A DNA stretch of 64,000 nt from an uncultured Clostridia bacterium (GCA_947306755.1 CAMZHI010000003.1:6489-70488); one strand, 5' to 3'. Positions 34,113-62,675 are shown, counted from the first letter of the stretch. Notes: generated by a model not told the origin, from the sequence alone. Numbers and translations: made by a program.

Positions 34113-34129
34113 GACCTTCGGGTTATGAG
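34113..34129. repeat. 17-bp direct repeat GACCTTCGGGTTATGAG (tRNA-Met anticodon-arm sequence), candidate att site
   Basis: Identical to 62659-62675, where it is contiguous with the 3' end of a tRNA-Met. Mobile-element genes start immediately to the right. Confidence 0.7.
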
Positions 34130-34330
34130 AAGTTACTGTAATTTAGTGAAATTAAGGGTTTTAGCTTATTTATCAATGAAAATTGGGGAAGATTATTTCG
34201 AACATTTGTGTCTTTTCAAGTCCTTTTAGGAGAATTTCTTCATCAACTTTTCCCCAATGAATTATACATGGCTTTTTATGGGTTAGTTTTTGAAATAAAA
34301 ACAATCAAAATTTATATTAGGAGGTTTACT

Positions 34331-34687
34331 GTGATTAATATAACTTATCATAAGGAAGGAGATTATTTGATTCCTGATTTGATTATGGAGAAATCTAATT
34401 CAACTTATAATGTTGGAAAATATGGACATTTAAGAAATAAATTCTTAAAAGAACATAAAAGAGGATTATATACTAAATTAATGATTAATGGAAATTTAAC
34501 AGATCATTTAATTGATATTGATAAAACTGCTACTGCAAGAGTTAAAAATATAATTAATAAACTTGCTAAAACAGAAAATGTGAATGAAGATTTAAAACAA
34601 TCTAACCAATTTGAATGGGTTAGATGTATGAATAATATTAAAAACAGAGCTGAAGAAATTGTTTTTAATGAATTAATATATGTGTAG
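34331..34687 (+). CDS. tnpV: Transposon-associated protein TnpV
   Basis: ORF 34208..34687. Start at GTG (VINITYHKEGDYLIPDL) after AGGAGG. The pattern ITYHKEGDY...GKYG.LR..FLKEH...EIVFNELIY is typical of TnpV. Confidence 0.7.
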   Translation: MINITYHKEGDYLIPDLIMEKSNSTYNVGKYGHLRNKFLKEHKRGLYTKLMINGNLTDHLIDIDKTATARVKNIINKLAKTENVNEDLKQSNQFEWVRCMNNIKNRAEEIVFNELIYV

Positions 34688-34700
34688 GAGGAAATGGAAA

Positions 34701-34991
34701 ATGAGTTTTAGAGAAGTAAATGATGATATTTTAAAAGAGTTTTGGGAATACAGAGACCAAACTGCATTTGCATTTATGACTAAAGAAGATAAAAAACATA
34801 TGATTTATTTTGATGAAATTACAAGCAAAATCTTAAACAGCATTCCTAAACAAAATAGGAAGTTTGTGCAACAGCAACTAAATAAGCTTGATGATAATTT
34901 TTCTGAGTATGTTGGGTATTGGAGTGAGAAGTATTATAGGAATGGATTTTGTGATGGAGTGCAAATGATGTGTGGATGTTTTGAGGAATAG
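34701..34991 (+). CDS. Small mobile-element protein (same loose family as 52778..53032 and 53636..53905)
   Basis: ORF 34680..34991 with start at ATG (MSFREVN). Central L..L....K..L..LDD and C-terminal F..GF motif. Confidence 0.45.
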   Translation: MSFREVNDDILKEFWEYRDQTAFAFMTKEDKKHMIYFDEITSKILNSIPKQNRKFVQQQLNKLDDNFSEYVGYWSEKYYRNGFCDGVQMMCGCFEE

Positions 34992-35048
34992 CTAAAACAA
35001 AAGTGTGAATCTTTACTTTTGTATAAAGTACAATTTTCACACTTTTTA

Positions 35049-35708
35049 TTATGTATCAAGAACATTATTATTACACTTATCAATTTTCGTAATAAAATCT
35101 ATTTTTATATTATTTTTAGGGTTTTTATATTCTTTATTGCAAAACTCTATAAAATCTTGCAACTGTTCCTTAGCCTTTGAAGTTTTTATTATTTTTTGAT
35201 AAGTTTTCTCTAGCCCATAAAAATCTATTAAATTTTCTATCGCCAATCGTAATATTGTAAACATTAATTTATATTGTTTTGAAATAATTGTATGTTGTTT
35301 TCTGTTAATTCTTAGAACATATTTGTCTATTGGATATCTTGCATTAATCATTGTATTATCTCCATAAATTCCTTCCAAATAGTTTATACATTCTTCAATC
35401 CTTAAAAGCTGGTTATTAACTGAATTAATATTTAAGTATTTTATATATTTCCTCCTAACACCTTGTACTAATTCTAAACTTTTATGGTTATCAATTTTCA
35501 AAGTATGTGCTGTTTCTTCTATTTCAAAAAAATCTTGTAAAATTGCTTTTAAATGGTTTTCAATATATTGCATTATTAGTGCTGTTAATGGAGATAATAC
35601 TTCATTAACATTTTCAATTTCTAATAATTTCTTAATTGCTTTTTTATACTCAGAATTATACTTTAAAACCTCTTTATATAATTCTTCTTTCCTACTTTGA
35701 AACTCCAT
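35049..35708 (-). CDS. Hypothetical helical protein, possible HEPN-like
   Basis: 219 aa. Last gene of the Fic operon (16-nt gap). INARYPID loosely resembles the RYP signature seen in some HEPN domains. Weak. Confidence 0.35.
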   Translation of the reverse strand: MEFQSRKEELYKEVLKYNSEYKKAIKKLLEIENVNEVLSPLTALIMQYIENHLKAILQDFFEIEETAHTLKIDNHKSLELVQGVRRKYIKYLNINSVNNQLLRIEECINYLEGIYGDNTMINARYPIDKYVLRINRKQHTIISKQYKLMFTILRLAIENLIDFYGLEKTYQKIIKTSKAKEQLQDFIEFCNKEYKNPKNNIKIDFITKIDKCNNNVLDT

Positions 35709-35724
35709 GTTCTCATACTCCTTT

Positions 35725-36654
35725 TTATTCTTTATGCCCTTTTATAAGCTCATAAATTGGTAAAATTTCAACTTTATCAGGTTCAATATTGTAAATAATC
35801 CTTGCCCTGAATTCTTCCAATTTTAATTGCATCATATCACTAAATTCTCTATAAATTATCTTTGAGTCTTCAGTTTCTTCAATTCTAAAAATATAATCTT
35901 GTAATTTCAGTATTTCTGATAAAACTACAGCTTGTCTTCCTTCTCCTTCTTTGTAATATCTAAAATGTCTTGCAGCTTCTTGTATTTTTATACGTAAATC
36001 ATATAATTTTTGAAATAGTTCATATGTTTTTATATAATTAGCATTTCCTGTAAAAAACTCTACATCTCCTAAGATAAAATTCAAATTATCTGTACTTTGA
36101 TTTAAATAATTCAAATACTGATCCACTATTGTATTAATCTTTTTAGTATTTTTACTATATAACTCTTCAATCTTTTCATCTATATATTTTTTACATGCAT
36201 CTTTAGATATCTTTCCTAGTAACTCTTTATTATCTTCTTTTATTTGCTCTCTTATTAATTTAGTATTTTCAAATTCTCTTGCGGGAATTTCTAGTTTAAT
36301 TTGTTTATAATACTCTGTTATCCCTATTTTTCTTCTTTGTTCGTTTATGAACTTTACAAAAATGTCTTTATCATAATCTATATTCATATAGTCTATACTA
36401 TTCAATCCTATAATCAATTTTCTACATTCATTCCAATATTGTTCTAATACTCTTTTTCTCTCAACTTTATAGGCAGATATATAGAAAAATACTGTAACAA
36501 TTGAACTACAAAATGATCCTAAAAAAACATCTTTCATAAATCCAGTGAAATTATTTGAATACTTTATATCTAATACTTTAAATAATATAGCCATTATAAA
36601 AAGTATACTTGAAATCATAATAGCTAGTTTTGATGCCTTACAATTAACTTTCAT
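35725..36654 (-). CDS. Hypothetical membrane protein (2 N-terminal TM helices plus coiled-coil-like cytoplasmic region)
   Basis: 309 aa. TM segments LAIMISSILFIMAILF and FLGSFCSSIVTVFFYISAY. 11 nt after the Fic gene. Confidence 0.45.
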   Translation of the reverse strand: MKVNCKASKLAIMISSILFIMAILFKVLDIKYSNNFTGFMKDVFLGSFCSSIVTVFFYISAYKVERKRVLEQYWNECRKLIIGLNSIDYMNIDYDKDIFVKFINEQRRKIGITEYYKQIKLEIPAREFENTKLIREQIKEDNKELLGKISKDACKKYIDEKIEELYSKNTKKINTIVDQYLNYLNQSTDNLNFILGDVEFFTGNANYIKTYELFQKLYDLRIKIQEAARHFRYYKEGEGRQAVVLSEILKLQDYIFRIEETEDSKIIYREFSDMMQLKLEEFRARIIYNIEPDKVEILPIYELIKGHKE

Positions 36655-36665
36655 AATTACCTCTT

Positions 36666-37598
36666 CTATTTTAAATAATACTCTATTATTTTAATATACT
36701 GATCCTGTGCATTTAAACAGGTATCAATTAAATATCCTTTTTCTCTATTACTTTGATATTCTTTTAAGCCCCTGTAATAAAATAGTTTATCTTTATCTAG
36801 AATAATAAACGGAATTATATTATTTTTTAAACATTCTTTAAATGCAATTATTCTACCAACTCTGCCATTACAATCTTGAAATGGATGTATTTTTTCAAAT
36901 CTAGCATGAAATTCAATTATTTCGTGAATAGTTATCTGTATCAAAGAATTATACCATTCTACTAATTTTTGCATATTTTTTTGAACATCCTTTGGAGCTG
37001 TTGTTTTCATATCACCAACTGAATTTGGTAGTTGTTTATATTCTCCTACATTAAACCACTCTTTTTGTGCATCAGAAGTTCCTGTTTTTAGTATTTTATG
37101 AAATTTCTTTATCATATCTTCTGTTAATTCATCATTAGCAACATCAATCATATAATCAATTAGTTTAAAGTGATTTGTTGTTTCTATAATATCATTAACA
37201 TTTGCAATTGTTTTATCTTCAAATAAAATTGTATTAGTTTCAAATATATATCGTGTTTGCTCTTCTGTTAATGTACTTCCTTCAATATGATTAGTATTAT
37301 ATGTGAAAGCAATTTGCGTATTATGATATAGATTACCTTTTAATTTCATATCCTTTTGTTCTCTTAATATATCTAACACATTTATATTTGAAATATCAAA
37401 TTCTTTTTCATCACTTAATAATTCATCAATTGATATCTCAAATAATTCAGCTAATCTTTTTAAAGACTCAATATTTGGCTCTAATGCTCCTGATTCATAT
37501 TTAGAAATAGTTGCAGGACTAACATTTAATATATCAGCAACTTCATTTTGAGTCATTCTTTTCTTTTCTCTATATAATTTAATTTTATCTCCTAACAT
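36666..37598 (-). CDS. XRE-type HTH fused to a Fic (AMPylase-family) domain
   Basis: N-terminal LYREKKRMTQNEVADILNVSPATISKYESG. Fic motif HPFQDCNGRVGR (canonical HPFx[D/E]GNGR, with C replacing G). Confidence 0.75.
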   Translation of the reverse strand: MLGDKIKLYREKKRMTQNEVADILNVSPATISKYESGALEPNIESLKRLAELFEISIDELLSDEKEFDISNINVLDILREQKDMKLKGNLYHNTQIAFTYNTNHIEGSTLTEEQTRYIFETNTILFEDKTIANVNDIIETTNHFKLIDYMIDVANDELTEDMIKKFHKILKTGTSDAQKEWFNVGEYKQLPNSVGDMKTTAPKDVQKNMQKLVEWYNSLIQITIHEIIEFHARFEKIHPFQDCNGRVGRIIAFKECLKNNIIPFIILDKDKLFYYRGLKEYQSNREKGYLIDTCLNAQDQYIKIIEYYLK

Positions 37599-37640
37599 AA
37601 TAAAAACTCTCCTTTTTGATTATAATACTATTATATCATA

Positions 37641-37696
37641 TTATTTCCAAAAAAGAAAGTATTTATTCGGCGTTTTGTATTTTATTTCCAAAAAAG
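37641..37696. promoter_or_regulatory. Two 15-bp direct repeats (TTATTTCCAAAAAAG) in the Fic operon promoter region
   Basis: Copies at 37641-37655 and 37682-37696. The downstream copy overlaps a TTGGAA-17-TATTAT promoter read on the minus strand. Confidence 0.45.
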
Positions 37697-37789
37697 ATTT
37701 ATATACATTTCAAATTCTCTTGACATTACCAATAATAAAGTGATTAATAACAATAATTTTTATGGAAATAACTTATTGGAAGTTATATA

Positions 37790-38650
37790 TTATTTCTTAC
37801 TAACATATGTAAGTATTCTTTTACCTAAAAGAGTAATATGAAACCTGTCTATATTTAAATTATTAGCTGTACCAACAGTTACCAAATAATCAACTTGTAA
37901 AACCCCTAAATCATTTAATTTCATAAGTGACTTTGCAAATAAAGCTCCATAGAATGATTCTTCATCATCATTTAAAAGTAGTAAATAATTTAATGGTATT
38001 TCAGGAAATTGACAAAAAGTTCTAAAATCTTTCCAAAAAATAGTAGTATTCTTTAATATAATATTTCTATCTATAAAATCCATTTTTAGCATTTTTAATT
38101 CATTTTTATGATTATTATTATACTTTTCTATTTTTAAATTTTCTTTTTTATTTTTTTCTATATTTAGCTTTTTTTCTTTGCTTTTAAATATATACTCATT
38201 TTTGAATCCCGCATCTAGAAAGGATTTTATTTTTTTTAATAAAATAATATCATTGCTGTTTAAACTTTCAATTATTTCACAAAGTTCTTCTTCTAAATTA
38301 TGTTCTTCTTTCATTATACAATCAATAAATATAGAAATGTATATATCAACCGTTTCAGGTATACATTTTATAATTATATGTTGTAATGAATTCGAAATAA
38401 AGTATTTTTCATGCTCTGGTAAAGTTATTATTTTCTCTTTAAATTCGTCTATAGATATTTTTTTATTCTTTAATTCTTTTTCTATCTTTTTAATTCTTTT
38501 TACTATATCGTTGTCTGAAATTAGTCCCACCACTCTTCTTATAGCATATGTAATTAATGGTATAGCACTAAAGGCTGGATTAACTAATCCCAAAACATTA
38601 GATGATGCATCTGCAAAGTTTATCACATTTTCTATCTTTTCTTTTTTCAT
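37790..38650 (-). CDS. Hypothetical protein (last gene of five-gene operon)
   Basis: 286 aa, no recognisable catalytic motif. The C-terminal LMKLNDLGVLQVDY...ITLLGKRIL has a winged-helix-like flavour. Confidence 0.4.
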   Translation of the reverse strand: MKKEKIENVINFADASSNVLGLVNPAFSAIPLITYAIRRVVGLISDNDIVKRIKKIEKELKNKKISIDEFKEKIITLPEHEKYFISNSLQHIIIKCIPETVDIYISIFIDCIMKEEHNLEEELCEIIESLNSNDIILLKKIKSFLDAGFKNEYIFKSKEKKLNIEKNKKENLKIEKYNNNHKNELKMLKMDFIDRNIILKNTTIFWKDFRTFCQFPEIPLNYLLLLNDDEESFYGALFAKSLMKLNDLGVLQVDYLVTVGTANNLNIDRFHITLLGKRILTYVSKK

Positions 38651-38688
38651 AATTTCTCCTTTTTTAAGCTAATTACATTTACAACTTA

Positions 38689-40101
38689 TCAAATTTTTAT
38701 ATTATCTATCATTCTTTCAAAACAATCTTTATCTAATCCAAAATTGATTAAATAAAACTTATTAATTATATCATTATTATCAAAAATCTCCCCACAATTC
38801 TTACAAAATAAAGATGCTTTATATTCCATTTCTATTTTTAAATTTGCATTATTTACATTACTATTTATAATTTTTATATCTCCAAATCTTGTTATGTTGT
38901 ATTCTAGTGGATCTATAATTTTTAGTTTTTCCAATTCAATCAAATAGTTTTTAACAGCATCATATTTTGAATCCCATATTTCATCTTTACTATAATCAAA
39001 TTCCTTAAAATACTTTAATCCAGAATACTTTTCAACCCATGAAATTATTTTAGCTAATTGAATATTCTTCCCTTCTCTATTTAATATAAACATATCATAT
39101 ATAGCCTTTTGCCATGTTTCTCTAGTGCAATCAAATGCATATTCTCCTTTAACTGGTATATTATACACACTTATACTATTTTTTATATTTTTTTTACTGT
39201 AGTCATCTACTACACTTAAAAATTTATTCACTTTCTTCCTTTTTAAATCTTCTTTATGTTCTATAGCATATTTTCTTTTTTCTTCCTTTTGCTGTTCTTG
39301 AATCATCTTTATTCTTTCTTCATATTCTTTTTTTCTATTTTCTAAATCTCTTTTTTCACACAACTCTTTTTTTGTGTATTTCTCATTTAATACAAAATGC
39401 TTTGTATTATATACTTTATCATATATTTTTCTTTCTTCATTCTCTACTCTTGTTTTAAAAATCCATCCTCTTATAGCGTTAAATAGTATATATTTGTCCA
39501 AATCGAAATCATCTTTTTGCATATCTTCTTTAATAAAACTTAAACATATTTCAATCATATCTATTTTAGATTTTTTAACCTTTTCTTCTTTTTGTTTATC
39601 AACTTCATGTGTAACAAAAATCTCTATTGCTAACTTTTTATTGCCTATTTCAACAATGCAATCTGGAATAAAATCATCAATCCTTACTTCATTTTCTACC
39701 CATTTATACGGATATATACTCTCTTTTATAAAGAATTGATTTGTAATTCGTTCATTATTTTCATTTTCCCACCTATAAATATCTTGAATAAGCGGCATAT
39801 TTACCTCATCAAATCGTAAATACTCACCTACAGTTAAGTCTGGTAATAAAATCTTGTTATTCTTTTTAATTAATTCTTTTGCATATAAATGTAAACTAGT
39901 TTCAAAATTTCCATTACATTGCTTATTGCTCAGATGAGAAAAATGCCATTTGTTTTTTTCTCCCATTCTTGGAATTAATTTTTCACCACATTCTGGACAA
40001 TAACAGTTTTTATAATTTTCCCTATTGTTTATATCTCCTGTTTTTATATAAATCATTTCCTTCTTTTGATTTATAGCAAATGGATTTTTAAATTTTTGCA
40101 T
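38689..40101 (-). CDS. CoiA-like nuclease-family protein
   Basis: YCPECGEKLIPRMGEKNKWHFSH...ETSLHLYAKE and LAIEIFVTHEVDKQK resemble the competence protein CoiA family (zinc ribbon plus PD-(D/E)xK-like core). Confidence 0.55.
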   Translation of the reverse strand: MQKFKNPFAINQKKEMIYIKTGDINNRENYKNCYCPECGEKLIPRMGEKNKWHFSHLSNKQCNGNFETSLHLYAKELIKKNNKILLPDLTVGEYLRFDEVNMPLIQDIYRWENENNERITNQFFIKESIYPYKWVENEVRIDDFIPDCIVEIGNKKLAIEIFVTHEVDKQKEEKVKKSKIDMIEICLSFIKEDMQKDDFDLDKYILFNAIRGWIFKTRVENEERKIYDKVYNTKHFVLNEKYTKKELCEKRDLENRKKEYEERIKMIQEQQKEEKRKYAIEHKEDLKRKKVNKFLSVVDDYSKKNIKNSISVYNIPVKGEYAFDCTRETWQKAIYDMFILNREGKNIQLAKIISWVEKYSGLKYFKEFDYSKDEIWDSKYDAVKNYLIELEKLKIIDPLEYNITRFGDIKIINSNVNNANLKIEMEYKASLFCKNCGEIFDNNDIINKFYLINFGLDKDCFERMIDNIKI

Positions 40102-40164
40102 CTATTTCCTCCCAAAATTCATAAAAAGATAATTAGAGTTCTTCTAATTATCTTTTGTAAAAAA

Positions 40165-42123
40165 CTACTCATATTTATATTCTTCACTATCTTCTGCAAC
40201 CATTAAGACATCATTATCTTCTTCATCAATTGAATATGTAATCTCATTCTTTTGATTCAATCTTTTCTTTAAATAATCTGATAAGTTTTTATCTGTACAA
40301 TAAATATAACAGCCTTTCTGTCCTCTTGTCATTAATGTTCTATATGTATTCTTAATTATTTCATCTGCTATTGTATTAGCTTTTTCAGAGTCCTCTCTAC
40401 TTAACTTATTAATACCTTTTATAGATTGATCTGTTTTAGCTCTTTTTGTTACATCTGTAATTATCTTACCATTCTCGTACCTTAAGTCATCTCCAATAAT
40501 TACACCAATATAATCAAATTCTAGTCCTTGAGCAGTATGTATACATCCAATTTCATTTACTGATTCAGCATCTATCGCCCATGTTTGGCTATTTCCAAGA
40601 TTCCAACTCATTGCAAAATCATATTCTGGAATAGTTATATCATATACATCTGTTTTGTTTTTTCCATCTTTTATCCAGTTCCAGCAATATCCTGCTAATA
40701 ATCTTGCTTTATTATTTATTTTATTTTTTTCAAGTATTAAATCTCTTACTTCGTTTGGAGTATCACATACCTTGATGTCATAATCCAAGTCAAAACCATC
40801 ACTATTGGCTGTCCTTCTAATTTCTAATACATCATCTAACCATGCAATATATCCATCTGAACCATTACATCTAAACTGCGATTCCAATTCCATTATTTCT
40901 GATTCTGCATTAGCTTGTTTTATATATTTTTGTATTTCATCAATACTCCCTATATCCTTTAAGGTTACTCTTTGTGATTCATCTATGAAAAATATTGAAA
41001 ATTTAGAAGCTTTAATAATCTCTTTTATTTGATTTTCTCCTAAGTTTTGAAACATTCCAGATTTCGCATTTAATCTATGTGCTTCATCTACAATTAAAAC
41101 ATCAAATTCATTTTCTGCAGATTCTACAAATGAACCCGAACCTTTAAATAAATTATTAATTCTTGTTTTTCTAAAATCTCCACTTAATTTAGTTGCATAT
41201 ACATTTCTTGGTGCTGCATTTTTTGTAACATATGAACAAACCATATTTTCATTAGTTAATTTTACTAAAAGATTAATTGCTAAAACTGATTTTCCCGTTC
41301 CAGGTCCACCTTTAACAACTAAAACTCTTTTATTTCCATCTCTATATGATTTCCTTGCCATTTCTAATGCTGTTTCATATACAAGTTTTTGATCATCTAT
41401 CATTACAAATTCTTCATTACCTTTTAACATACTTGTTAATGCATCTTGTAATGATTTAGAAGGTCTAATTTTTCCATTTTCAATCATATATAGTGTCTCT
41501 TTATCATCACCATATTTTATGTATCTATTTATAAAGTCTCTTAATTTTTCTACATCTCCCTTTATAAATGCAGGTGCTTTATCTAAGTAGTATTTATAAT
41601 TATCTGCTAATAATGTTGGAGGTGTTACTGTTAAATAATTATGAAGGTATGCACATGGATGTAAATCTATTTGTCTTTCTTGCACTGTTTCATTATAGTC
41701 TTCTATTGTTGTTGCATAAGACCATGCTTGATATGAAGGATGTGCTACTTCCCTTAATGCATGTCCTGTATACGCTTGTACAATTCCATCTTTCCCTTCA
41801 ACTATATCAGCCTCTGTCCATTGTTTTAATTCAACAATAATAGCAGTATTTTTAAGTTTTCCATCTTTACCTGTAATTATAAAATCTACTCTTTTAGATG
41901 TATTTGGAATTTTGAATTCAATTGCAATTCCTACATTCCCTGGTATATTGTTATCAATTAAAACTTTCATCATATATTGCATAGAATTATTCCATGCTTT
42001 TCTTTCATTTTGAGATGTATGATATCCCATCTTTTCATAAAATCTTCTATCTATATTTTCTTCAATTCTATCTTGCACAACATCTTCTACAAACAGTTGC
42101 TTTGTTGCTTCATATACTATCAT
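40165..42123 (-). CDS. DUF2075-type nuclease-helicase (N-terminal PD-(D/E)xK-like module plus SF1 P-loop ATPase)
   Basis: ORF 40165..42138 with start at MIVYEAT. VDFIITG...IIVELKQW (D..E.K), Walker A GGPGTGKS, Walker B LIVDEAHRL, C-terminal QGLEFDYIGVIIG. Confidence 0.75.
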   Translation of the reverse strand: MIVYEATKQLFVEDVVQDRIEENIDRRFYEKMGYHTSQNERKAWNNSMQYMMKVLIDNNIPGNVGIAIEFKIPNTSKRVDFIITGKDGKLKNTAIIVELKQWTEADIVEGKDGIVQAYTGHALREVAHPSYQAWSYATTIEDYNETVQERQIDLHPCAYLHNYLTVTPPTLLADNYKYYLDKAPAFIKGDVEKLRDFINRYIKYGDDKETLYMIENGKIRPSKSLQDALTSMLKGNEEFVMIDDQKLVYETALEMARKSYRDGNKRVLVVKGGPGTGKSVLAINLLVKLTNENMVCSYVTKNAAPRNVYATKLSGDFRKTRINNLFKGSGSFVESAENEFDVLIVDEAHRLNAKSGMFQNLGENQIKEIIKASKFSIFFIDESQRVTLKDIGSIDEIQKYIKQANAESEIMELESQFRCNGSDGYIAWLDDVLEIRRTANSDGFDLDYDIKVCDTPNEVRDLILEKNKINNKARLLAGYCWNWIKDGKNKTDVYDITIPEYDFAMSWNLGNSQTWAIDAESVNEIGCIHTAQGLEFDYIGVIIGDDLRYENGKIITDVTKRAKTDQSIKGINKLSREDSEKANTIADEIIKNTYRTLMTRGQKGCYIYCTDKNLSDYLKKRLNQKNEITYSIDEEDNDVLMVAEDSEEYKYE

Positions 42124-42154
42124 AATAATTGCCCCCATTAATTATTATTTACTT

Positions 42155-42730: not shown

Positions 42731-42738
42731 TTTCCCCC

Positions 42739-44579: not shown

Positions 44580-44598
44580 TTCTAGTTCTCTTTATATA

Positions 44599-46579: not shown

Positions 46580-46611
46580 AAAAATCAGCACAAACGCATT
46601 GGAATCAAAGG

Positions 46612-53613: not shown

Positions 53614-53635
53614 TGTATGAAAGGAGATTAGAATA

Positions 53636-54561: not shown

Positions 54562-55989
54562 ATGTTTTGTTCGAATTGTGGTAAAGAAGTTTCAAATAGT
54601 CAAAATTATTGTGAATATTGCGGAACTAAAGTAATGAAAAATAATATCAATAAAGATACCAGTATAAAGTTAGATGAATTAGAAATAAATAATGTAATTA
54701 AAACAAAGGCTAAAAACAATACATCATCAAAAGAAATTCAGAAAAATGTAATAAGAATTTCTTTTACCAAGTTTATACTACTAGTAGTGTTATTTGTGTT
54801 GTTTTTTATAATACTAATATCAATTTCAACTTTAAGTAGAAATAGTAAGACGGTAAGTCAAAATAATTCAATAAATATAGAAATCCCAAGTTTTAATAAC
54901 AATATTAATATTTCTGGAATAACACAAGAAGAACGACAAGAATTAACATCAATATTAAAGAATTTTAATTCCTCAAGATATAATTGTAAATTGACAGATA
55001 AAATTGGAAAATACTATCAAGATTTCGGGATGTTTTACACTATATCAGAGTCGAGAACCAATATAAACGAAAAGGGTTATATCGATGAATTATACTATAG
55101 TCTTATTGATAAAAAAAACAATGAAAATAAAAGTATAGAAGTAAATTTAACTTATACTTTTGACAATAAAGGTAGACCTATTAAAATCCGATTTGATGAT
55201 ACTAAATCTACTGTTATTGAATATAACGCTTTTTCAAAAAATGCTTTATACGAAATATCTTACTTAGATAACGGAATGATAGAAACTATAAATTGTACTC
55301 TATATAAGGATAATACAAGAGTAGAGTATCATTTTTCTTATAAGGAAAATAATGACTATGACAAGATTAAAGTATTATTTTATGGTAAGGATTATGTTAA
55401 AGATGCTAATCATCTAATATCATTTGACTATTTAGATAACAAAATTTTGATGTCCAAAGGCGAAGGTATAAAATTTTATTTTCAAAAAGATGATATGATA
55501 AGTCAAAATAGTCTATCAGAATACTTTAATACACTGTTATTTCAATCGTTTATAGAAATAGATGAAACAACAATAATTAACCAGAATCGAATTCCATTAT
55601 TGGAAATATTCTTTCCATTTACAATAAAGAAATCACTTTACTGTAAATACATAAGTGAATTTTATTATTCATATAATGAAGATGGACTTGAAGATATGTC
55701 ATATAATAGCGACTATACAATAAAATCAAAATATGATTATATAAAAGCTGATAACAAGCTAATGAAGATTGAAACTAATTATAAAGATAATAATGTCACA
55801 AAATCATATACCATTTTTACTTATAATGAACATAATCAAATAGAAAGTATTTATGAAGTAAATAATATTGAAGATTTTAAGAAAAGTGCCAACACTAAAA
55901 AGTATCTTATGCAGATTTGGGGTAAAGATAGTAAGTTCTTAAGTAGAGAGTTTTATACATTTTGCAGTAATTATCGGAGAAGTTATTGA
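54562..55989 (+). CDS. Zinc-ribbon, single-pass membrane protein with large extracytoplasmic domain
   Basis: ORF 54493..55989 with start at ATG (MFCSNCGKEVSNSQNYCEYCG) after AAGGAGG. TM is FILLVVLFVLFFIILISI. Confidence 0.55.
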   Translation: MFCSNCGKEVSNSQNYCEYCGTKVMKNNINKDTSIKLDELEINNVIKTKAKNNTSSKEIQKNVIRISFTKFILLVVLFVLFFIILISISTLSRNSKTVSQNNSINIEIPSFNNNINISGITQEERQELTSILKNFNSSRYNCKLTDKIGKYYQDFGMFYTISESRTNINEKGYIDELYYSLIDKKNNENKSIEVNLTYTFDNKGRPIKIRFDDTKSTVIEYNAFSKNALYEISYLDNGMIETINCTLYKDNTRVEYHFSYKENNDYDKIKVLFYGKDYVKDANHLISFDYLDNKILMSKGEGIKFYFQKDDMISQNSLSEYFNTLLFQSFIEIDETTIINQNRIPLLEIFFPFTIKKSLYCKYISEFYYSYNEDGLEDMSYNSDYTIKSKYDYIKADNKLMKIETNYKDNNVTKSYTIFTYNEHNQIESIYEVNNIEDFKKSANTKKYLMQIWGKDSKFLSREFYTFCSNYRRSY

Positions 55990-56391
55990 CTCATACACTA
56001 CTGAAGATTGCTATGCTAATATTGTTTTGATAGAAGATAGCAAATATGATAGCGTATACAAAGAACTATCAAAAGATGATAGAATTTCAAGAATAATAAA
56101 TGATAGACAAACATTAGAAGAATATCAAGAAGGTTTAAAAGAAGGGTTAGATTAGTCAAAGAATGATTAAAATATAAAAAAAAAACTATATCATTTATTG
56201 TTTAAATTGTGAAAAAATATCAGATATGATAGCATTTATAAAAATTGATCAAAAACGCTAAAATTTCAAATGTAATAACCAATAGACAAGCTTTAGAATA
56301 TTATCAAGAAGCGGTTAGTTTAAATTTTGATTAAAAATTGTAATTGAAACTTGTAAAGAGTTATCAAATAAAAATATTAGGAGGAATGAAA

Positions 56392-56610
56392 ATGAAAGAG
56401 AAGAAGAAAATACCTTTATGGGCTGATATTATAATTGCAGTGGTAATTGCTGGAATAGTAATTATAGTTTTATCTACAATTAATGATTATCAAAGAGAGA
56501 AAAAGAGAAAAATGTATTATGAACAATATACAAGTAATTCAAGCAACATTAATAATGTAAATTCTAATAAAACTAGAGTTTTGGATCCATCTACATATAC
56601 ACCAGAATAA
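56392..56610 (+). CDS. Small single-pass membrane protein
   Basis: ORF 56344..56610 with start at ATG (MKEKKKIPLWADIIIAVVIAGIVIIVL), 7 nt after AGGAGG. Confidence 0.45.
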   Translation: MKEKKKIPLWADIIIAVVIAGIVIIVLSTINDYQREKKRKMYYEQYTSNSSNINNVNSNKTRVLDPSTYTPE

Positions 56611-56679
56611 AAATCCTAAAATTGAGTACAAATGGCGATAGTTTTATATTTCTGATATTTAAATAATGGGTGAATCACA

Positions 56680-57855
56680 ATGGAAATTAAAACTTATGGA
56701 GCTAATAAAATTGGTGGATGTATAACAGAAATTAGAAGCGGAAACACTAGAATAATTTTTGATTATGGGAATAATTTAGATGATTCTCCTCAAATAGACC
56801 TTGAAGGCTTAACCTATGGAACACCACAATATAATGCAGTGTTTATATCACACTACCATCTCGACCATATAGGCGCTATTGATAGAGTATTGAAAGATAT
56901 CCCTATTTATATAGAGAAAACAACAAAGATACTTTATGACATTATCTGTGATTTTCAAAGTAAACCAAGAGTCAATGTAAAAACATTTGCTTTTAATAAA
57001 CCTATTACTCTTTTAAATGATATAAAGATTACACCTTATTTGGTGGATCACTCTGCTTATAATTCCTGTATGTTTGTAATAGATGATGGCAAAGAAAAAG
57101 CACTGTATACGGGAGATTTCAGAAACAACGGATATACTGGTAATAGATTACTACCTACATTTGAAGCAATAGGAAAAGTGGATTACCTAATTACAGAAGG
57201 CACCAATATTACAAACGATAACACTCATATTATTAGAAAAGAGAGTAGTCTTGTAAATGATTTTGTAAGAATAATACAAAAATATAATCAAGTCCTTGTA
57301 TTGATGTCTGCATCTAATATTGATAGAGTTACAACACTATTAAAGGCTTGTAATAAAACAGGCCATACTTTAATTGAAGATATTTATATGGCACATCTCA
57401 CGACAACAATATTTAAGACTGATAATGTTAATGTTCCTAATCCTATAAGTTACGATAATGTTATGGTTTATAAGCCTATTTATTTTAACAAGAAGGACAC
57501 AGAGGTTAAGGATAAGTATTTGAACTGTTTTAATGATAAGAATAATAGCGACATGTTATATAAGCCGTTCATTATGAATATTAGAACAAGTATGCTAGGC
57601 GATTTAAGGATGTTTAAGAGAAAGCATATCTTGACTAATTCTTGTCTAATTTATTCAATGTGGGATGGATACAAGCAACAAGAAGATATAAAGAACTTCT
57701 TAAAGTCTGTTAAAGCACTAGGTATTACAATAATAGAAACAGATATACACGCAACAGGACACGCAAGTAAAGAACTTCTAAAAGAGATTATAGAAATTAC
57801 TGGCTGTTCAAAAGTTTATATTATTCATTCTAATTTAAAAGCTAATAAAAATTGA
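56680..57855 (+). CDS. Metallo-beta-lactamase-fold hydrolase
   Basis: The HxHxDH motif SHYHLDHIG, later DHSAYNS and TGDF motifs, and a C-terminal HATGHAS. Confidence 0.7.
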   Translation: MEIKTYGANKIGGCITEIRSGNTRIIFDYGNNLDDSPQIDLEGLTYGTPQYNAVFISHYHLDHIGAIDRVLKDIPIYIEKTTKILYDIICDFQSKPRVNVKTFAFNKPITLLNDIKITPYLVDHSAYNSCMFVIDDGKEKALYTGDFRNNGYTGNRLLPTFEAIGKVDYLITEGTNITNDNTHIIRKESSLVNDFVRIIQKYNQVLVLMSASNIDRVTTLLKACNKTGHTLIEDIYMAHLTTTIFKTDNVNVPNPISYDNVMVYKPIYFNKKDTEVKDKYLNCFNDKNNSDMLYKPFIMNIRTSMLGDLRMFKRKHILTNSCLIYSMWDGYKQQEDIKNFLKSVKALGITIIETDIHATGHASKELLKEIIEITGCSKVYIIHSNLKANKN

Positions 57856-58230
57856 TACAAAGATTTTTTGAAATGAAAAATATAATGAGATATTATTCGT
57901 AGTTAAAGATGGAAGTGACAATGTTAAAATTATAAAACTACTCTTATATCGGCCGAAAGATATAGTTTTATAAATAAAGTGTCAGAAATCATAGGAATTA
58001 CAATATCATATTGTACCTATAACTTCCTCGAGAATTGGAAATAAAAATATTCTTAATAATAAGAAGAAAGAAAATATTATTAATATTAGTTATGCTACCA
58101 TAAATAATAATTTTATCAATAATGATAATATTAATGTTTATGCTATTGCCAATGGTAATATTAAAGAGAAAGAGAATTTGAAGTTTTACGATAAGATAAA
58201 AAAGAATGATATACTAATGATAAAATGATA

Positions 58231-58284
58231 ATGCTATGTAAATATATGAACGTAAGATTCCAAAATAAATACAATGCACCTATC
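58231..58284. repeat. Direct repeat copy 1 in the non-coding region
   Basis: ATGCTATGT-AAATATATGAACGTAAGATTCCAAAATAAATACAA.. About 85 percent identical to 58571-58640, which carries a 16-nt insertion. Confidence 0.7.
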
Positions 58285-58570
58285 ATTAATTAAAATGTAA
58301 AATAAAGTGTCGGTTTATTAAAAACAATACACATATAAGTACAATAAAGATTACATATTACAAAGTTAACACAAACTATATTAAGTAAAAGTCAAACTGG
58401 TAAAATGTTAAATTAAAAATTAGTTAGAGATTAAAGTTATAACTCTAATATAGAAAAGTATAAAATAAATAAAATATAGATTAAAATGAAGTTAATCTAC
58501 ATAATGTTGATAATTAAGATAATAAAAATAAAGTAGATAGAAAGAAAGAGAATTATATTAGTTTAAAGGT

Positions 58571-58640
58571 ATGCTATGTTTAAGATGATGTTAAGTAAAT
58601 ATATGAACGTGAGTTTCCCAATAAATACAAAACATCTATC
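58571..58640. repeat. Direct repeat copy 2 in the non-coding region
   Basis: ATGCTATGT[ttaagatgatgttaag]TAAATATATGAACGTGAGTTTCCCAATAAATACAA.. Confidence 0.7.
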
Positions 58641-58747
58641 CTTGAAACATAGTAATACCCACCAAAGATACGCCAGCTAATGCTAAAGCCTAATGTTAAA
58701 GCTAAAGTCTAAAGATTAAGTTTAATCAAGCTATTAAGAAAGCACAC

Positions 58748-58806
58748 CACTATTCCACTATGCTACTAAACCACAATATCTGGTATGGTGGCATAGTGGA
58801 ATAGTG
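58748..58806. ncRNA. Strong 16-19-bp hairpin, candidate structured RNA or protein-binding palindrome
   Basis: CACTATTCCACTATGC ... GCATAGTGGAATAGTG are perfect 16-bp arms with a 27-nt loop. A terminator-like hairpin follows 12 nt downstream. Confidence 0.35.
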
Positions 58807-58817
58807 AAAGGCTAAAT

Positions 58818-58840
58818 AAAAGAGCTAAAATAGCTCTTTT
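58818..58840. terminator. Bidirectional rho-independent terminator
   Basis: AAAAGAGCTA AAA TAGCTCTTTT with T-runs on both strands. Directly after the stop of 58845..59447. Confidence 0.6.
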
Positions 58841-58844
58841 ATTT

Positions 58845-60005
58845 TTAATTATTTTCATCATAAAGCCTTTTCCAAAGATAGTTTTCAAAGGTCATACTAT
58901 TATTAATAAATTTGTCGTCCTTATCTGCAAGAAAAGTTTGATAAATGCCCAAACATCTATTATTATCAAAACTAGAATTAGAATAATAAGTACTTCTAAC
59001 TCCTTTAAAAGAATATCTTTCTGACCTATAACCTAACGCTAAAATTTGTTTACCAAATTGAGCATTGCAAACTTCTTTATAATTGTTTTCTTGACACCAT
59101 TTACAATATTCTGAATAATATTGAGTTTTTCCTATAAAAGTATTTATTGGAAACAGAGTACAAAATTCCAATACACTATTACATTGCATAAAATAATTAT
59201 GTGTTTCTAATTCTATATTGCTAGGAATTGTAAATTTGCCATTCTTTAATACTCTATAAAATGCTAATATTGATTTAGTAGCAATAATTTGTAATGCAAG
59301 AGGTCTGCATAGTTTATTACCTATATCAATATCACGATTACCGGTATTGTCTGTAAATGTAGCATTAAAAGGAATTACAACAAATCGATCTGTTATGTGT
59401 AGCCCTGTTTCTTTGAAATTAATTGATTCATTTATAGAAAATAACATCGTAGTGCATGATTTTAAATAATCATTTCTTCCTTTAGCCTCTAATGAAATAG
59501 GTTCACCTGATATTATTCTTGTTATAATTGATGTATTAATGTATTTAGGTTGCTTTTGGTCTTCTGATATGTTAACTGTACATCCGTTTTAATTTCTCAA
59601 TCGTGTTTTTGCTTCCAGATTTATTCCCCGATAATTGTTCTAAATGTTCATGTGAACATTGATTTCCTAACATTGCTTCTAATATACGAAATATTTTAGA
59701 TTTTCCATTTCTTCCGATTTCCGCTTAAATATAAATGCTTTATTTAGTTTTGATGTTTTAAACAATGAATATCCTATTACTTCATAAAGTAATGTTTCAA
59801 TTCCTTTATCACTGCAACTAATACTATCAAAGAAATAATTAACAAGTTCTAGTTCCCTTGAATTATCTAAAAGTACATTTATATCATTATAAGGTACACT
59901 CAATTTTGCAATTATATTAGATAGCTTATCAATTTCTGTTTTATAATTATTTATTTGTATTATTTTTTCTTCTTTATTAAGATTTTTTATTTCTGTTAAA
60001 GTCAT
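58845..60005 (-). pseudogene. P4-family primase / D5-like helicase gene disrupted by frameshifts and stops
   Basis: ORF 59679..60005 ends at ..KAFIFKRKSEEM, where a Walker A is expected. GNGKSKIFRILEAMLGN is readable in another frame around 59640-59700. ORF 58845..59447 carries the C-terminal primase-family region (FVVIPFNATF...YSEYCKWCQENNYK). Confidence 0.6.
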
Positions 60006-60316
60006 TATCTTTTCCCCCTTAAATTATTTTTTGAGCAGTCTAGCAATTCATTTCTCTTATCTCTCTTTTGGCTATACCAGTTAATAATCGAATTTATTTC
60101 TGCCACTTTAGTTTTGCCTACGTCTTCACTTGGGAAGCTTGGAAGTAGGTAAATTTTTCTTGCAGTGGCTAATGAACAATTGCGAATTTCTGCAAATTCC
60201 TTTATGGTTACAAAATGTATCATTTTAGATTTATCTTCCATCAATTTAAGTTTCTCTAGTAGCTCATCTAATTTTCTTATGTTTAAATCAATGTCAGTAT
60301 CGACATAAAAAGTCAT
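60005..60316 (-). CDS. Small HTH (excisionase/AlpA-like) DNA-binding protein
   Basis: ORF 60005..60349 with start at ATG (MTFYVD) after AGGAGGTG. HTH is VTIKEFAEIRNCSLATARKIY. Its stop overlaps the primase start (TAATG). Confidence 0.5.
   Translation of the reverse strand: MTFYVDTDIDLNIRKLDELLEKLKLMEDKSKMIHFVTIKEFAEIRNCSLATARKIYLLPSFPSEDVGKTKVAEINSIINWYSQKRDKRNELLDCSKNNLRGKR
60023..60049. repeat. 27-bp inverted repeat, left copy
   Basis: ATTATTTTTTGAGCAGTCTAGCAATTC is the exact reverse complement of 61213-61239. Confidence 0.95.
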
Positions 60317-60516
60317 ATCAGACACCTCCTTTCTTACTGGACTTGACATTTTATTTAAAATGTAGTATTGTATAGGAAATCTTACAGTAAGTACGTTTCC
60401 TACAAGGAGAATATTACCACATATTTATTCTAAAAAACGAATATAGCCTAAAAGGATTTAATTACCATAGTTTAATAAAAAAATTTCATATAGGAAATGA
60501 AAGGAGATAACGAATC

Positions 60517-61188
60517 ATGAATGATGAAAAAAAGGCAAATAATGAAAAGTTAAAAAATGACTTAAAAAATACTTTTGCTGACATATTAGATGATTTAGTA
60601 GAAGATGAAAAAAAGAAAACAGGACTAGGTAACAATCAAATTGCCGACGAAATAGGAATTGGACAAGGACAATTAAGTAAACATCTAAATGCTCAAGCGG
60701 AGTTAAAAATAAGCAGTTTAGTAAAAATCGCAAAATATTTTGGGGTTAGCACTGATTATCTGCTAGGTTTAACAAAATTAAAAAGTCCTAATGAAGATTA
60801 TAAAACTGTTCACAAAGTTTTGAATTTATCAGATGGCTCTATTAAGAATGTTAAAGCAATGAATAAAAACAATGATGGATTTGCCTATGTATTAAATCTT
60901 CTGCTAGATAATACAGAAGAAACATCAAAGTATTTCAAAAGTTGCATATTAAATATTATTAAATACTTATCTGATATGTCAAATGCCGATGCAGAAGCAA
61001 ATGATAGTTACGATGATTATAATCCATTTTCTATAGAAAGTTTAGAAAAAGATATAGAAGAAGGAAATAACCCTTATAAGATTAAGAATGCAAAAGAACT
61101 AGAAGCTGTACATCTATTTAGAATAACTAATATTACAACAGCATTAGCTAAAAAAATAAAAGAAAAATATCTATCAGATATTAAATAA
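60517..61188 (+). CDS. XRE-family HTH repressor-like protein
   Basis: HTH is NQIADEIGIGQGQLSKHLNAQAELKISSLVKIAKYFGVSTDYLLG. 223 aa. Confidence 0.7.
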   Translation: MNDEKKANNEKLKNDLKNTFADILDDLVEDEKKKTGLGNNQIADEIGIGQGQLSKHLNAQAELKISSLVKIAKYFGVSTDYLLGLTKLKSPNEDYKTVHKVLNLSDGSIKNVKAMNKNNDGFAYVLNLLLDNTEETSKYFKSCILNIIKYLSDMSNADAEANDSYDDYNPFSIESLEKDIEEGNNPYKIKNAKELEAVHLFRITNITTALAKKIKEKYLSDIK

Positions 61189-61212
61189 AAAAACAGGGAA
61201 TATTTTTTGGAC

Positions 61213-61239
61213 GAATTGCTAGACTGCTCAAAAAATAAT
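61213..61239. repeat. 27-bp inverted repeat, right copy
   Basis: GAATTGCTAGACTGCTCAAAAAATAAT. Lies between the repressor gene and the integrase gene. Confidence 0.95.
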
Positions 61240-61324
61240 CCCTTTGAAAATCAAGAGTGATTTTCTATACTTAATTATAGTATAAAAAATCATTCTTGTA
61301 AAGCAAAAGGAGTGATTTTTTATT

Positions 61325-62539
61325 ATGGGAAGAAATAGAAAAAGAACGAAACAAGTTGGAAATGGCGAAGGCTCATTATATTACAGCGATACTCTATCTT
61401 GTTGGGTATTTCAATATTATGATACAAACGGAAAAAGGCAAACTATGAAGCAAAAGAAAAAGGAAAGCACAAAGGATTTTAAAGCAAGAGTTACAAAGGT
61501 TAAAAATAGTCTTAATAATGGAACTTACATAAGTAAAAGCTCTGAAACGGTTGTATCTCTTGCTAAACATTATATCAAATTAAAATATGAAGATGGAACA
61601 ACAAGTGCTAGGAGTTATGGGCGAGAATTATCTACTTTAAAACAATTAGAAAAAACTTGTTATAATTTTTGTTATCTGCCTATTCAACAGGTAACAATAA
61701 AGCATATAGAAGATGCAAAAAAAGAATTAAAGATATACTCAAATTCCGTTATTGATAAAATATGGCAGATGTTACACAAAACATTTAAAATAGCTTGTTC
61801 TCCATCAAGAAAAATATTACTGTATAATATAATGGAAGATATAAACTTGAAGAAACCTATATCAAGTACACCAAGTAAAAAAGTAAAGCCCTTGACTAAA
61901 AATGAATGTAGACGATTAACGCATATTCTTGACAATGAAGAAAGAAATCATAAATATAGAAATCTATTAAAACTACATCTTATAGCTGGTTCAAGGATTG
62001 GCGAAACCCTTGCTCGTTCTGAAAATGACTTTGATGAAGAAAACAACACATTTAATATTTGGAATACACTAACTCAAGATGATAAATATCATGTTATTTG
62101 GAGTGAACACACAAAAACATACAATAAACTTTCTGGTGTAGATGAAGGACAAAGATTTTTGCCACTAGATAACCCTATATTTGCTGAAATAGCTGATATA
62201 GTAAAAGAAGAAAAAGCAAAAAAGGTAAAAAGTATAAATAATGTTCATAATGTACTATTTTGGGATTATAAGAATGACACTTTTATTTCTCCTAAAGAGA
62301 TTAATTCGTGGTTATATAGACTTGAAGCGAAATATCACATATTAGATAAGGATGATGGCGAAAATTTGACAACACATAGAATAAGGCACTATGCTATAAC
62401 ACATTGGTCTGAACTAGGTATTCCTAAAAGGGTTATTCAATATCTTGCAGGACACGTTGAAGGAAGTACAATAACAGATGAAGTTTATATCGAAACATCA
62501 TTTGATTTTGTAAAAAATACATTGTGTAAAATATCTTAA
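61325..62539 (+). CDS. Tyrosine site-specific integrase
   Basis: Catalytic region GSRIGE...HRIRHYAITHW...LAGHVEGSTITDEVYIE (R, HxxR, H, Y). Ends 90 nt from the tRNA-derived repeat. Confidence 0.85.
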   Translation: MGRNRKRTKQVGNGEGSLYYSDTLSCWVFQYYDTNGKRQTMKQKKKESTKDFKARVTKVKNSLNNGTYISKSSETVVSLAKHYIKLKYEDGTTSARSYGRELSTLKQLEKTCYNFCYLPIQQVTIKHIEDAKKELKIYSNSVIDKIWQMLHKTFKIACSPSRKILLYNIMEDINLKKPISSTPSKKVKPLTKNECRRLTHILDNEERNHKYRNLLKLHLIAGSRIGETLARSENDFDEENNTFNIWNTLTQDDKYHVIWSEHTKTYNKLSGVDEGQRFLPLDNPIFAEIADIVKEEKAKKVKSINNVHNVLFWDYKNDTFISPKEINSWLYRLEAKYHILDKDDGENLTTHRIRHYAITHWSELGIPKRVIQYLAGHVEGSTITDEVYIETSFDFVKNTLCKIS

Positions 62540-62547
62540 AAAAAACG

Positions 62548-62569
62548 TTACTGCATACTTACTGCATTA
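62548..62569. promoter_or_regulatory. Two direct copies of TTACTGCAT(T)A, candidate arm-type integrase sites (right end)
   Basis: TTACTGCATACTTACTGCATTA. Matches the pair at 52656-52678. Confidence 0.5.
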
Positions 62570-62630
62570 AATAATAAGAAAAAAGATACATTAAATGCTG
62601 ATATTTTAAGCAAAATGTATCTTTTTAGTT

Positions 62631-62675
62631 TGGTTGCGGGGGTAAGACTCGAACTTACGACCTTCGGGTTATGAG
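62631..62675 (-). other. 3' 45 nt of a tRNA-Met(CAU) (anticodon loop to CCA), no 5' half, att-site remnant
   Basis: The minus strand reads CTCATAACCCGAAGGTCGTAAGTTCGAGTCTTACCCCCGCAACCA. It has a CAT anticodon loop, T-arm GTAAG-TTCGAGT-CTTAC, and an acceptor 3' strand plus CCA. Upstream sequence is the end of a protein gene, not a D-arm. Confidence 0.8.

Follow-up and report, generated by a model that had tools for sequence, protein, structure and literature searches.

Two tandem integrative elements at an attachment site that probably derives from an initiator tRNA gene in an uncultured Clostridia bacterium

The stretch of DNA analyzed here (64,000 nucleotides, referred to as the window) contains a truncated tRNA sequence, two tyrosine integrase genes and two different direct repeats. 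The tRNA sequence lies on the minus strand at 62631–62675. Its 45 nt, whose reverse complement is CTCATAACCCGAAGGTCGTAAGTTCGAGTCTTACCCCCGCAACCA, extend from the anticodon loop to CCA and are identical at 42 of 45 positions to the 3' half of the initiator tRNA gene carried by contig C12 of the same assembly; two of the three mismatches are compensatory changes in the T stem. As judged from its sequence, this segment is the 3' half of an initiator tRNA-fMet. The first-pass annotation had described it as the last 45 nt of a tRNA-Met devoid of its 5' half, a description that is now refined to the initiator type. The 5' half is indeed absent, and non-tRNA DNA follows position 62675. ARAGORN found no tRNA gene in the 64-kb window and Rfam did not detect the half tRNA, the identification being based on alignment with intact tRNA genes.

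The anticodon-arm portion of this fragment, GACCTTCGGGTTATGAG (17 nt), is present in two exact copies at 34113–34129 and 62659–62675, and none of 100 shuffles of the window gave two matches, confirming that this previously noticed pair is not random. No third copy was found within the window with 2 mismatches allowed. In the whole assembly, the only further copy is located within the genuine tRNA-Met(CAT) gene of contig C12, so that all three copies are tRNA-fMet related. A second repeat of 14 nt, TTTGGTTGCGGGGG, occurs on the minus strand at 52520–52533 and 62629–62642, and again no shuffle out of 100 reached two matches. It had been taken for the 3' terminal portion of the tRNA; the repeat itself is real but its first two bases (62629–62630) lie outside the CCA end. 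The integrase ORFs, IntA and IntB, stop 208 nt and 90 nt short of their respective 14-mer copies, in agreement with the 90–210 bp given before.

The repeats delimit two elements, A and B. Element A spans positions 34130–52533 (18.4 kb). Its attL core (34113–34129, minus strand) is the 17-nt copy, which covers the tRNA-fMet anticodon loop, the 3' strand of the anticodon stem and the variable loop, and is flanked on its left by non-tRNA DNA. The left chromosomal-looking region stops there; tnpV and the defence genes start immediately to the right of 34129, as had been proposed. The left-end gene of A encodes TnpV (34331–34687, plus strand; Pfam PF14198, E 3e-40; true start GTG at 34331). It is followed by a small DUF6809-like gene (34680–34991, plus strand) whose product is 55% identical to that of the first gene of an A-like element found in genome G325. 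The cargo (35049–45393) is composed of an HTH-Fic module (PADLOC candidate system PDC-S04), a MazG-like/AbiU2-HEPN/DUF2075 helicase/CoiA-like operon and a third module with a C5 methylase and a Bpu10I-like endonuclease. Two backbone genes were identified on the minus strand by Pfam and NCBIfam, encoding a replisome organiser N-terminal domain (46857–47264) and an excisionase-type HTH protein (47282–47485), respectively 97% and 96% identical to their counterparts in the G325 element. IntA (51116–52312, plus strand) is a tyrosine integrase (PF00589, PF14659) in which the catalytic R/HxxRH/Y pattern was recognized by inspection as GARLGE/HGLRH/YNFYVH. It would belong to the class of integrases that cross over in the anticodon loop.

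Both ends of A carry putative integrase arms on the plus strand. The P arm (52313–52519) contains predicted arm-type sites CCCCAATTT/CTCCAAATT at 52412–52431 and a terminator hairpin at 52486–52514, and is about 90% identical and collinear with that of eight relatives. The P' arm (34130–34330) contains the arm-type motif AAATTGGGG at 34180–34188 and a partial copy, CCCCAAT, at 34252–34258. In the whole 64 kb, the IntA-family arm motif (CCCCAATTT/AAATTGGGG) has only two sites, at 34180 and 52412, one per proposed arm of A.

Element B (52534–62628, plus strand, 10,095 bp) possesses its own integrase and arm repeats at both ends. It encodes DUF6809 proteins, a Zn-ribbon protein, an MBL/beta-CASP-like hydrolase and a repressor-type HTH protein, and includes a gene-free repeat region. 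Its primase gene is split into fragments (59679–60005 and 58845–59447) that cover positions 316–641 of the 1064 of the profile. IntB (61325–62539, plus strand; PF00589; catalytic motifs GSRIGE/HRIRH/VYIE by inspection) shares just 24% local identity with IntA and belongs to a family targeting tRNA gene 3' ends; its relatives are situated about 90 nt away from genes for tRNA-Gln, Arg, Ser or Leu. The TTACTGCAT repeats are found at both ends of B as ACTGCAT(TA) pairs (52658–52676 and 62550–62567), and all IntB relatives examined have an arm repeat of this type after the integrase gene. The left junction of B is now the first 14-mer (52520–52533, minus strand), which consists of the acceptor strand, CCA and 2 nt of the tRNA-like block of A. 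At the right junction (62629–62675, minus strand), the second 14-mer is followed by the remainder of the 45-nt tRNA-fMet 3' half, which constitutes attR of A.

When B was excised in silico (52313–52533 joined to 62643–62675, one 14-mer being dropped), an uninterrupted arm of 254 nt was obtained. This restored arm is collinear with those of eight B-free relatives (256–257 nt), with about 90% identity. Removal of B thus restores the att site of A, each member being equipped with a separate integrase and att repeat, as in accretion. Together with IntB and the arm repeats, the empty site in eight relatives bears out the proposal that a second element integrated in the 3' end of the tRNA-like arm of A. 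The two elements are also those that had been called nested; tandem is the better term, B lying within the attachment block of A and not within its body. A comparison with strains lacking the elements had been suggested: the empty site of B was seen in these eight relatives, whereas no collection searched yielded an empty site of A or of A and B together.

Of 301 genomes of the genus, 117 have an IntA homologue. At 20 of the 30 best loci of the genus sample, the IntA-family gene is followed 210–390 nt downstream by a tRNA-fMet 3' block, and the same downstream block was observed in 13 of 17 near IntA relatives from a public genome collection. IntA-family elements share the motif family TCCCCAATTT in their arms, and in 17 of 20 relatives the motif is conserved about 100 nt ahead of the block. 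In four genomes (G107, G155, G114 and G325), an intact tRNA-Met(CAT), confirmed by ARAGORN, is continuous with the 45-nt block. Far junctions that keep only the core (15–17 nt) are common in this family (G093, G155, G325, G066 and G019), were found in 9 of 11 P'-arm-anchored sites and also occur in relatives whose other end has an intact tRNA. The same organization is found in G325, which has a core-only left junction, the A-like element (IntA 95% identical to that of A) and an insert of 8.9 kb, the array terminating in an intact tRNA-fMet. In the closed genome G326, the IntA element has the 45-nt block without an adjoining tRNA 5' half, and the single initiator tRNA gene is 266 kb away from it.

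These comparisons bear on the left boundary, where the 17-mer is, as noted before, not preceded by tRNA sequence. The doubt attached to this outer boundary is largely removed by the presence of the arm motif on both sides of A and by the core-only junctions of the family. Sequence left of 34113 showed no significant similarity to the tRNA T arm or to the P arm (z ≤ 1.6), and no further degenerate att copy was found leftward. Judged by eye, the left flank resembled a decayed IntA P arm plus tRNA end; this candidate was rejected, shuffle z being ≤ 1.6 versus 2.1–5.3 for the truly decayed copy of G114. By analogy with the relatives, the left side may nevertheless have originated as a decayed tRNA half. 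The left-flank DUF5131 gene has homologues 76–80% identical, the homology ending at the gene start. Exact-protein look-ups with this gene and with the second gene of A gave no match, and a genome-contig scan for the left flank plus core returned nothing.

The right flank (62676–64000, minus strand) stands in place of the tRNA 5' half and contains a membrane protein gene (62683–63588) and a NERD/Zn-ribbon nuclease gene. A gene stop codon is only 7 nt from the core, too close to accommodate a typical P' arm. On metagenome contigs L069, L071 and L072, this flank has three different partners, each attached at the identical nucleotide. In other strains, a complete 45-nt tRNA half, mildly decayed, and its terminator precede the flank, and in a third strain a different integrase element is found at this base. 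A metagenome scan with the right flank yielded occupied variants only, and no close homologue of it was found in 60 relatives. The right flank probably represents what is left of an older integrated element, C. The first-pass annotation had suggested a third element right of 62675 with the intact tRNA beyond it; the first part agrees with the same-base joins to other partners, but no intact tRNA was found before the end of contig C3, 2.2 kb beyond the window. The assembly contains no intact tRNA-fMet beside the array; its only one (contig C12) is unoccupied and retains its native 3' half.

The most likely reading is therefore that integrative elements have accumulated in tandem at an attachment site that originated from an initiator tRNA-fMet gene. 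The repeats, both integrases, the arm-type motifs, the link of the whole family to tRNA-fMet and the relatives with an empty B site were observed directly; the order in which things happened, where the crossover takes place and what the right flank represents are inferred. A, composed of defence genes and of an integrase, excisionase and replication-organiser backbone, would have carried an att site with the last 45 nt of tRNA-fMet. Its target would have been an older array junction rather than an intact tRNA gene, consisting of the conserved 17-nt core flanked by non-tRNA DNA on the left and by what remains of the third element on the right. IntA would bind the predicted arm sites (TCCCCAATTT) on both sides and carry out strand exchange where the core corresponds to the anticodon loop, so that the 45 nt brought in by the element would lie at the integrase end (62631–62675) and the core of the target at the far end (34113–34129). 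B, with an unrelated integrase recognizing the last 12–14 nt of the tRNA, would have inserted later in the A-borne copy of the tRNA end and duplicated 14 bp. This two-step order, A first and then B, had been put forward from the window alone and is supported by the 45-nt block of the IntA family, the intact tRNA-fMet in four relatives and the empty site of B. The 14-mers could excise B alone and the 17-mers A and B together; excision of A alone would be blocked because B separates the P arm of A from its core.

A different order of events, in which B entered the att block of A in an earlier host and both arrived as one composite through the 17-nt core, seems unlikely. Transfer of accretion composites is documented for other elements (PMC5704250). 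Such composites also recur, since the A-like element of G325 has at the equivalent place an 8.9-kb insert flanked by TGGTTGCGGGGG, a different element from B. However, B would put 10 kb between the P-arm sites of IntA and the core in the circle, which, judging from arm-dependent integrases, should hinder integration by IntA, and eight close relatives of A are without B. Still less probable is that A entered a genuine secondary site that was never part of a tRNA locus, at a chance 17-nt core between accessory genes, the right flank being ordinary chromosome. The lack of a tRNA 5' half nearby, the left flank that is not tRNA-like, the gene end 7 nt from the core and the minus-strand accessory genes on both flanks, as though one array had been interrupted, would fit this explanation. 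Against it, chance would not be expected to produce a perfect 17-nt match to the tRNA core; the decayed 45-nt half with its terminator that precedes the right flank elsewhere is the mark of an old tRNA-site junction; and a different integrase element occupies this base in the third strain. Finally, that the repeats are a dispersed family, chance matches or an assembly artefact unrelated to integration is hardly credible even for a fragmented draft genome (71% complete), given that the three 17-mer copies are all tRNA-fMet related, neither repeat pair was reproduced in 100 shuffles, ENA contig NODE_349 (37 kb) keeps the gene order across both inner junctions and the whole architecture recurs in other genomes.

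In a tandem pile-up at a tRNA-derived site, A and B fit one each of the crossover classes of tRNA islands, anticodon-centred and T-stem/acceptor; such sublocation classes of tRNA-gene integration were reportedly set out by Williams in 2002. Genomic islands integrated in tRNA genes and their tandem arrays are covered by the Islander definition of Hudson, Lau and Williams (PMC4383910). As in these islands, a tyrosine integrase gene (PF00589) lies inside each element next to one end (IntA and IntB), a copy of the tRNA 3' part is carried with a core repeat at the far end, and the array members each own an integrase and a tRNA fragment. In contrast to them, no intact tRNA is present at the integrase-proximal end, whereas it is in G107, G155, G114 and G325; the far-end fragment of A is only 17 nt long, next to DNA that is not detectably tRNA-derived; and B uses a tRNA end borne by another element instead of the gene itself. 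At the far end of B, the 14-mer is present. The locus also resembles the site-specific accretion of ICEs, IMEs and CIMEs, as in the ICESt1/ICESt3 model and the Streptococcus agalactiae tRNA-Lys composite (PMC5704250), in having two integrases less than 30% identical with different att sites and in that neighbouring elements are often decayed. Here the host differs: it is an uncultured clostridial bacterium of low GC content from the gut or rumen. Pfam, NCBIfam and PHROG scans found no relaxase, coupling-protein or MobC family in A or B; unlike IMEs, neither has an identified relaxase or conjugation gene. Both integrases share the catalytic R/HxxRH/Y residues of lambda-type arm-binding enzymes, and A and B have repeated predicted arm-type sites in both arms, about 50–125 nt from the core, A having in addition its excisionase-type HTH gene. 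By sequence, the nearest solved relatives are the Tn1549 integrase (6EMY) and integrase 3NKH, both weak matches (E 1e-7 to 5e-14). B, the only element compared with phage-inducible chromosomal islands (PICIs) and P4-like satellites, is similar to them in its tRNA 3'-end insertion and in its layout, with integrase and repressor on one side, oriented divergently from a primase, a small HTH gene and an origin-like stretch rich in repeats. It differs from them in its fragmented primase and in having no known helper phage, and no packaging, terminase-small, capsid-related or capsid-redirecting gene was found in it.

The locus is thus a clear example of a well-known process, ordinary tandem accretion at a tRNA site, with no new mechanism, and knowledge of how such islands integrate is unchanged. 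What it provides is the exact ends, and likely the recombination cores and arm sites, of two defence-carrying islands in an uncultured gut or rumen clostridial bacterium. Through a single integrase family, found in over a third of the genomes sampled for the genus, the initiator-tRNA site becomes a landing pad for anti-phage cargo. Comparison of the relatives provides, in effect, a natural mapping of the minimal target: about 15–17 nt persist, and the remainder of the displaced tRNA half degenerates or is removed by deletion; this mapping could guide the use of IntA-family integrases as site-specific tools. A more doubtful extension is that IntA elements may need only the 15–17-bp anticodon-arm core, arrays cycling at orphan cores long after loss of the tRNA gene. 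Where an array ends in the only detected initiator tRNA gene of a genome and the displaced native half is gone, as in G155, excision would then leave a broken initiator tRNA, the gene being held hostage.

CCAAA, corresponding to the tRNA 3' end, was observed near core-only junctions in the first five of five cases and in about 4 of 10 later independent cases. This pattern is at most suggestive of internal deletions.

The first-pass annotation had reported a 17-mer and a 14-mer, each repeated exactly, and both were confirmed as single pairs within the window (17-mer at 34113–34129 and 62659–62675; 14-mer at 52520–52533 and 62629–62642). As a control for chance, 100 dinucleotide-preserving shuffles were searched, and two matches to either repeat were found in none of them (0/100 each). 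The minus strand at 62631–62675 reads CTCATAACCCGAAGGTCGTAAGTTCGAGTCTTACCCCCGCAACCA and aligns from the anticodon loop to CCA, with 42/45 identities, to the tRNA-Met gene at 28188–28263 of contig C12, the only initiator-type tRNA-Met gene in the assembly. This agrees with the earlier description of the block as the last 45 nt of a tRNA-Met: the 5' half is absent beside it, and no second tRNA-fMet 5' half was found in the assembly. Compared with the C12 gene, the T stem of the fragment carries a compensatory change (GTAGG/CCTAC to GTAAG/CTTAC), so the fragment derives from a working tRNA allele and not from the host's present gene. The latter is unoccupied, retains its native 3' half and has the same downstream flank as in the related genome G134.

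The ~18-kb element A (34130–52533) has the integrase IntA (51116–52312), homologues of which were detected in 117 of the 301 genomes sampled from the genus. In 20 of the 30 best IntA loci a tRNA-fMet 3' block is placed 210–390 nt downstream of the integrase gene, and 13 of 17 near relatives taken from a public genome collection show it at the same position. In four related genomes (G107, G155, G114 and G325) the 45-nt block continues into CCCGACGAGCTGCCAACTGCTCCACCCCGCG, and ARAGORN detects an intact tRNA-Met(CAT) at these positions. Such junctions indicate that the IntA family targets, and integrates into, the initiator tRNA gene. The identity block of the family begins at the anticodon loop, as in the anticodon-centred class of tRNA-site integration defined in Islander (PMC4383910). 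At most other IntA loci non-tRNA DNA comes after the block; it belongs to several recurring left-end families, and these loci are tandem arrays. A tRNA-fMet-like sequence in G102 (C27:373–454) looks as though it had lost its D arm: its 3' half is intact, but the 5' side is shortened (AGCGGGGATATGGTCGGG ahead of the anticodon loop). G325 carries two initiator-type tRNA-Met(CAT) genes on opposite strands, 550 nt apart (L158:2206–2905), of which one is occupied by the array and the other is a variant whose anticodon stem contains a U-A pair.

A putative arm motif, TCCCCAATTT, mostly doubled, is located about 100 nt ahead of the 45-nt block in 17 of 20 IntA loci and occurs in the G093 and G325 elements too, in their left arms. 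Its exact 9-mer has only two copies in the 64-kb window, one at 52412 in the right arm of A and one at 34180 in inverted orientation, 51 nt inward from the left 17-mer, and this ties 34130–34260 to IntA. The outer boundary of A had been considered inconsistent for lack of tRNA sequence before 34113. Far junctions consisting of the core only recur in relatives, which takes away most of this doubt. The far-side copy of the 45 nt is perfect in G107, G110 and G095, progressively decayed in G114, G078, G012, G126, G068 and G009, and unrecognisable in G093, G155, G066, G019 and G325. In G155 and G325, the far junction is core-only and the integrase end has an intact tRNA. Core chromosome was found beyond the core, with YraN and ComM in G155 and IspG and IspH in G093 (translations judged by inspection).

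A sample of 11 sites was anchored on the left-arm motif and was therefore unselected for the core. The full 45 nt were present in 2 of them and non-tRNA DNA in the other 9, 8 of which kept 14–17 of the 17 core positions, always with CCTTCGGGTTATGAG. At the G085 site, the hairpin of the neighbour's P arm (the integrase-side arm) is fused straight to the core, so that deletion of the acceptor and T arm does occur. In far-junction copies (G325, G114; A variant in contigs L071/L072), polymorphic positions of the left core portion go with the chromosomal side, a pattern that would fit strand exchange within the anticodon-loop portion of the core.

Relatives of IntB (61325–62539), the integrase of the ~10-kb element B (52534–62628), were found in 37 of the 301 genomes. 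All of those that we read (L078–L101) show double repeats of the (C)TACTGCATTA type directly past the integrase stop codon, then a hairpin; most have the 3' end of a tRNA gene ~90 nt further on. This tRNA is Gln, Arg, Ser or Leu depending on the member: an 84%-identical relative in G154 lies at tRNA-Gln, and 50–64%-identical ones at Arg, Ser and Leu. The IntB family changes its tRNA target quickly while conserving its arm repeats ((C)TAyTGCATTA-type). In B, the repeat pairs are located at 62550–62567 and, at the other end, at 52658–52676; TTACTGCAT is a candidate IntB arm site. When B was removed in silico, joining 52313–52533 to 62643–62675, the resulting 254-nt arm plus block was collinear with eight relatives of 256–257 nt at ~90% identity, which represent the site without B. 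In G325 this place holds another element of 8.9 kb, which has a different tyrosine integrase, is flanked by TGGTTGCGGGGG and lies within an A-like element with an intact tRNA-fMet at its end. The two-element architecture that had been proposed is thus realised in a relative, at a true tRNA gene.

We propose that A entered a pre-existing junction with an intact core and that B subsequently entered the tRNA-like end of A. The 14-mers would recombine to release B, and the 17-mers to release A and B together, while excision of A alone is probably blocked because B lies between the P-arm sites of A and the core. The initial observation is confirmed and its reading supported. The array is of a known kind, since the literature already describes tandem arrays at tRNA genes, the two crossover classes and the accretion of elements with unrelated integrases (PMC4383910; PMC5704250).

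A third element had also been suggested to the right of 62675. The membrane-protein gene of this flank (62683–63588) has an identical product on other metagenome contigs. On L069 (1330–1490), from another strain, the flank is joined at GGAA|CTCATAACCC to a different integrase element. The arm of this element starts with CTCATAACCC and forms a hairpin (AACCCTAGGACTATAGGGTT), and repeated AAGTGACCAAAA motifs and a 381-aa integrase of a third type come next. L071 and L072 show the same junction base, but there the partner is a 45-nt tRNA half, mildly decayed and accompanied by a terminator; further out come an ATPase gene and a type I restriction island. Since the flank meets three partners at one anticodon-loop nucleotide, it behaves as an arm of a recombination junction, in partial support of the suggestion. 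The stop of its gene lies 7 nt from the core, however, leaving no room for a normal arm, and no tRNA was found to the right of the window before the end of contig C3. Most simply, the flank would be what is left of an older element. Arrays cut off from their tRNA exist elsewhere: the closed genome G326 carries an IntA element and 45-nt block without a tRNA partner, a truncated integrase 23 kb further on and its only initiator tRNA gene 266 kb away.

The left flank is itself a mosaic and not core chromosome. Within its minus-strand accessory gene array, 12868–12995 and 27043–27478 contain short stretches and a 66%-identical paralogue of the DUF5131 gene (33154–33987), the short stretches being 95–98% identical to the two ends of that gene.

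IntA and IntB share only 24% identity, over a short stretch, and both keep the catalytic pattern. Element A encodes TnpV, a DUF6809-like protein and an HTH-Fic protein (36666–37598) matching the PADLOC candidate defence family PDC-S04 (E 1.5e-105), then an operon of MazG-like, AbiU2, DUF2075-helicase and CoiA-like genes, a C5-methylase with a Bpu10I-like endonuclease, and a backbone of replisome-organiser N-domain, excisionase-type HTH and IntA. The HTH-Fic protein is 78% identical to its counterpart in the G325 element and may therefore be semi-conserved cargo of the family. Element B carries DUF6809 genes, a Zn-ribbon protein, an MBL-fold hydrolase, a 1-kb gene-free stretch, two phrog_864 primase fragments, a repressor-type HTH and IntB. 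The two primase ORFs (58845–60005) match consecutive portions of the family profile (positions 316–370 and 460–641 of 1064), and the gene-free stretch (57856–58844) sits where the remainder would be expected; the primase therefore looks broken and truncated, and because it is fragmentary we infer that B is decaying.

The host draft genome comprises 123 contigs and 1.78 Mb (71% complete, ~25% G+C), and the window covers 6489–70488 of its contig C3. Close IntA-type relatives in public records come from MAGs of uncultured gut and rumen Clostridia, including scaffolds of Clostridium sp. CAG:465, CAG:245 and CAG:389. On contig C12, outside the window, the interval that separates the native tRNA-fMet and tRNA-Leu(CAA) genes (C12:28264–28500) contains part of the tRNA-Leu 5' end a second time (GCCGATGTGGCGGAATTTGCTGAGG...), ~125 nt upstream of the intact tRNA-Leu gene; another small insertion may have left this scar.
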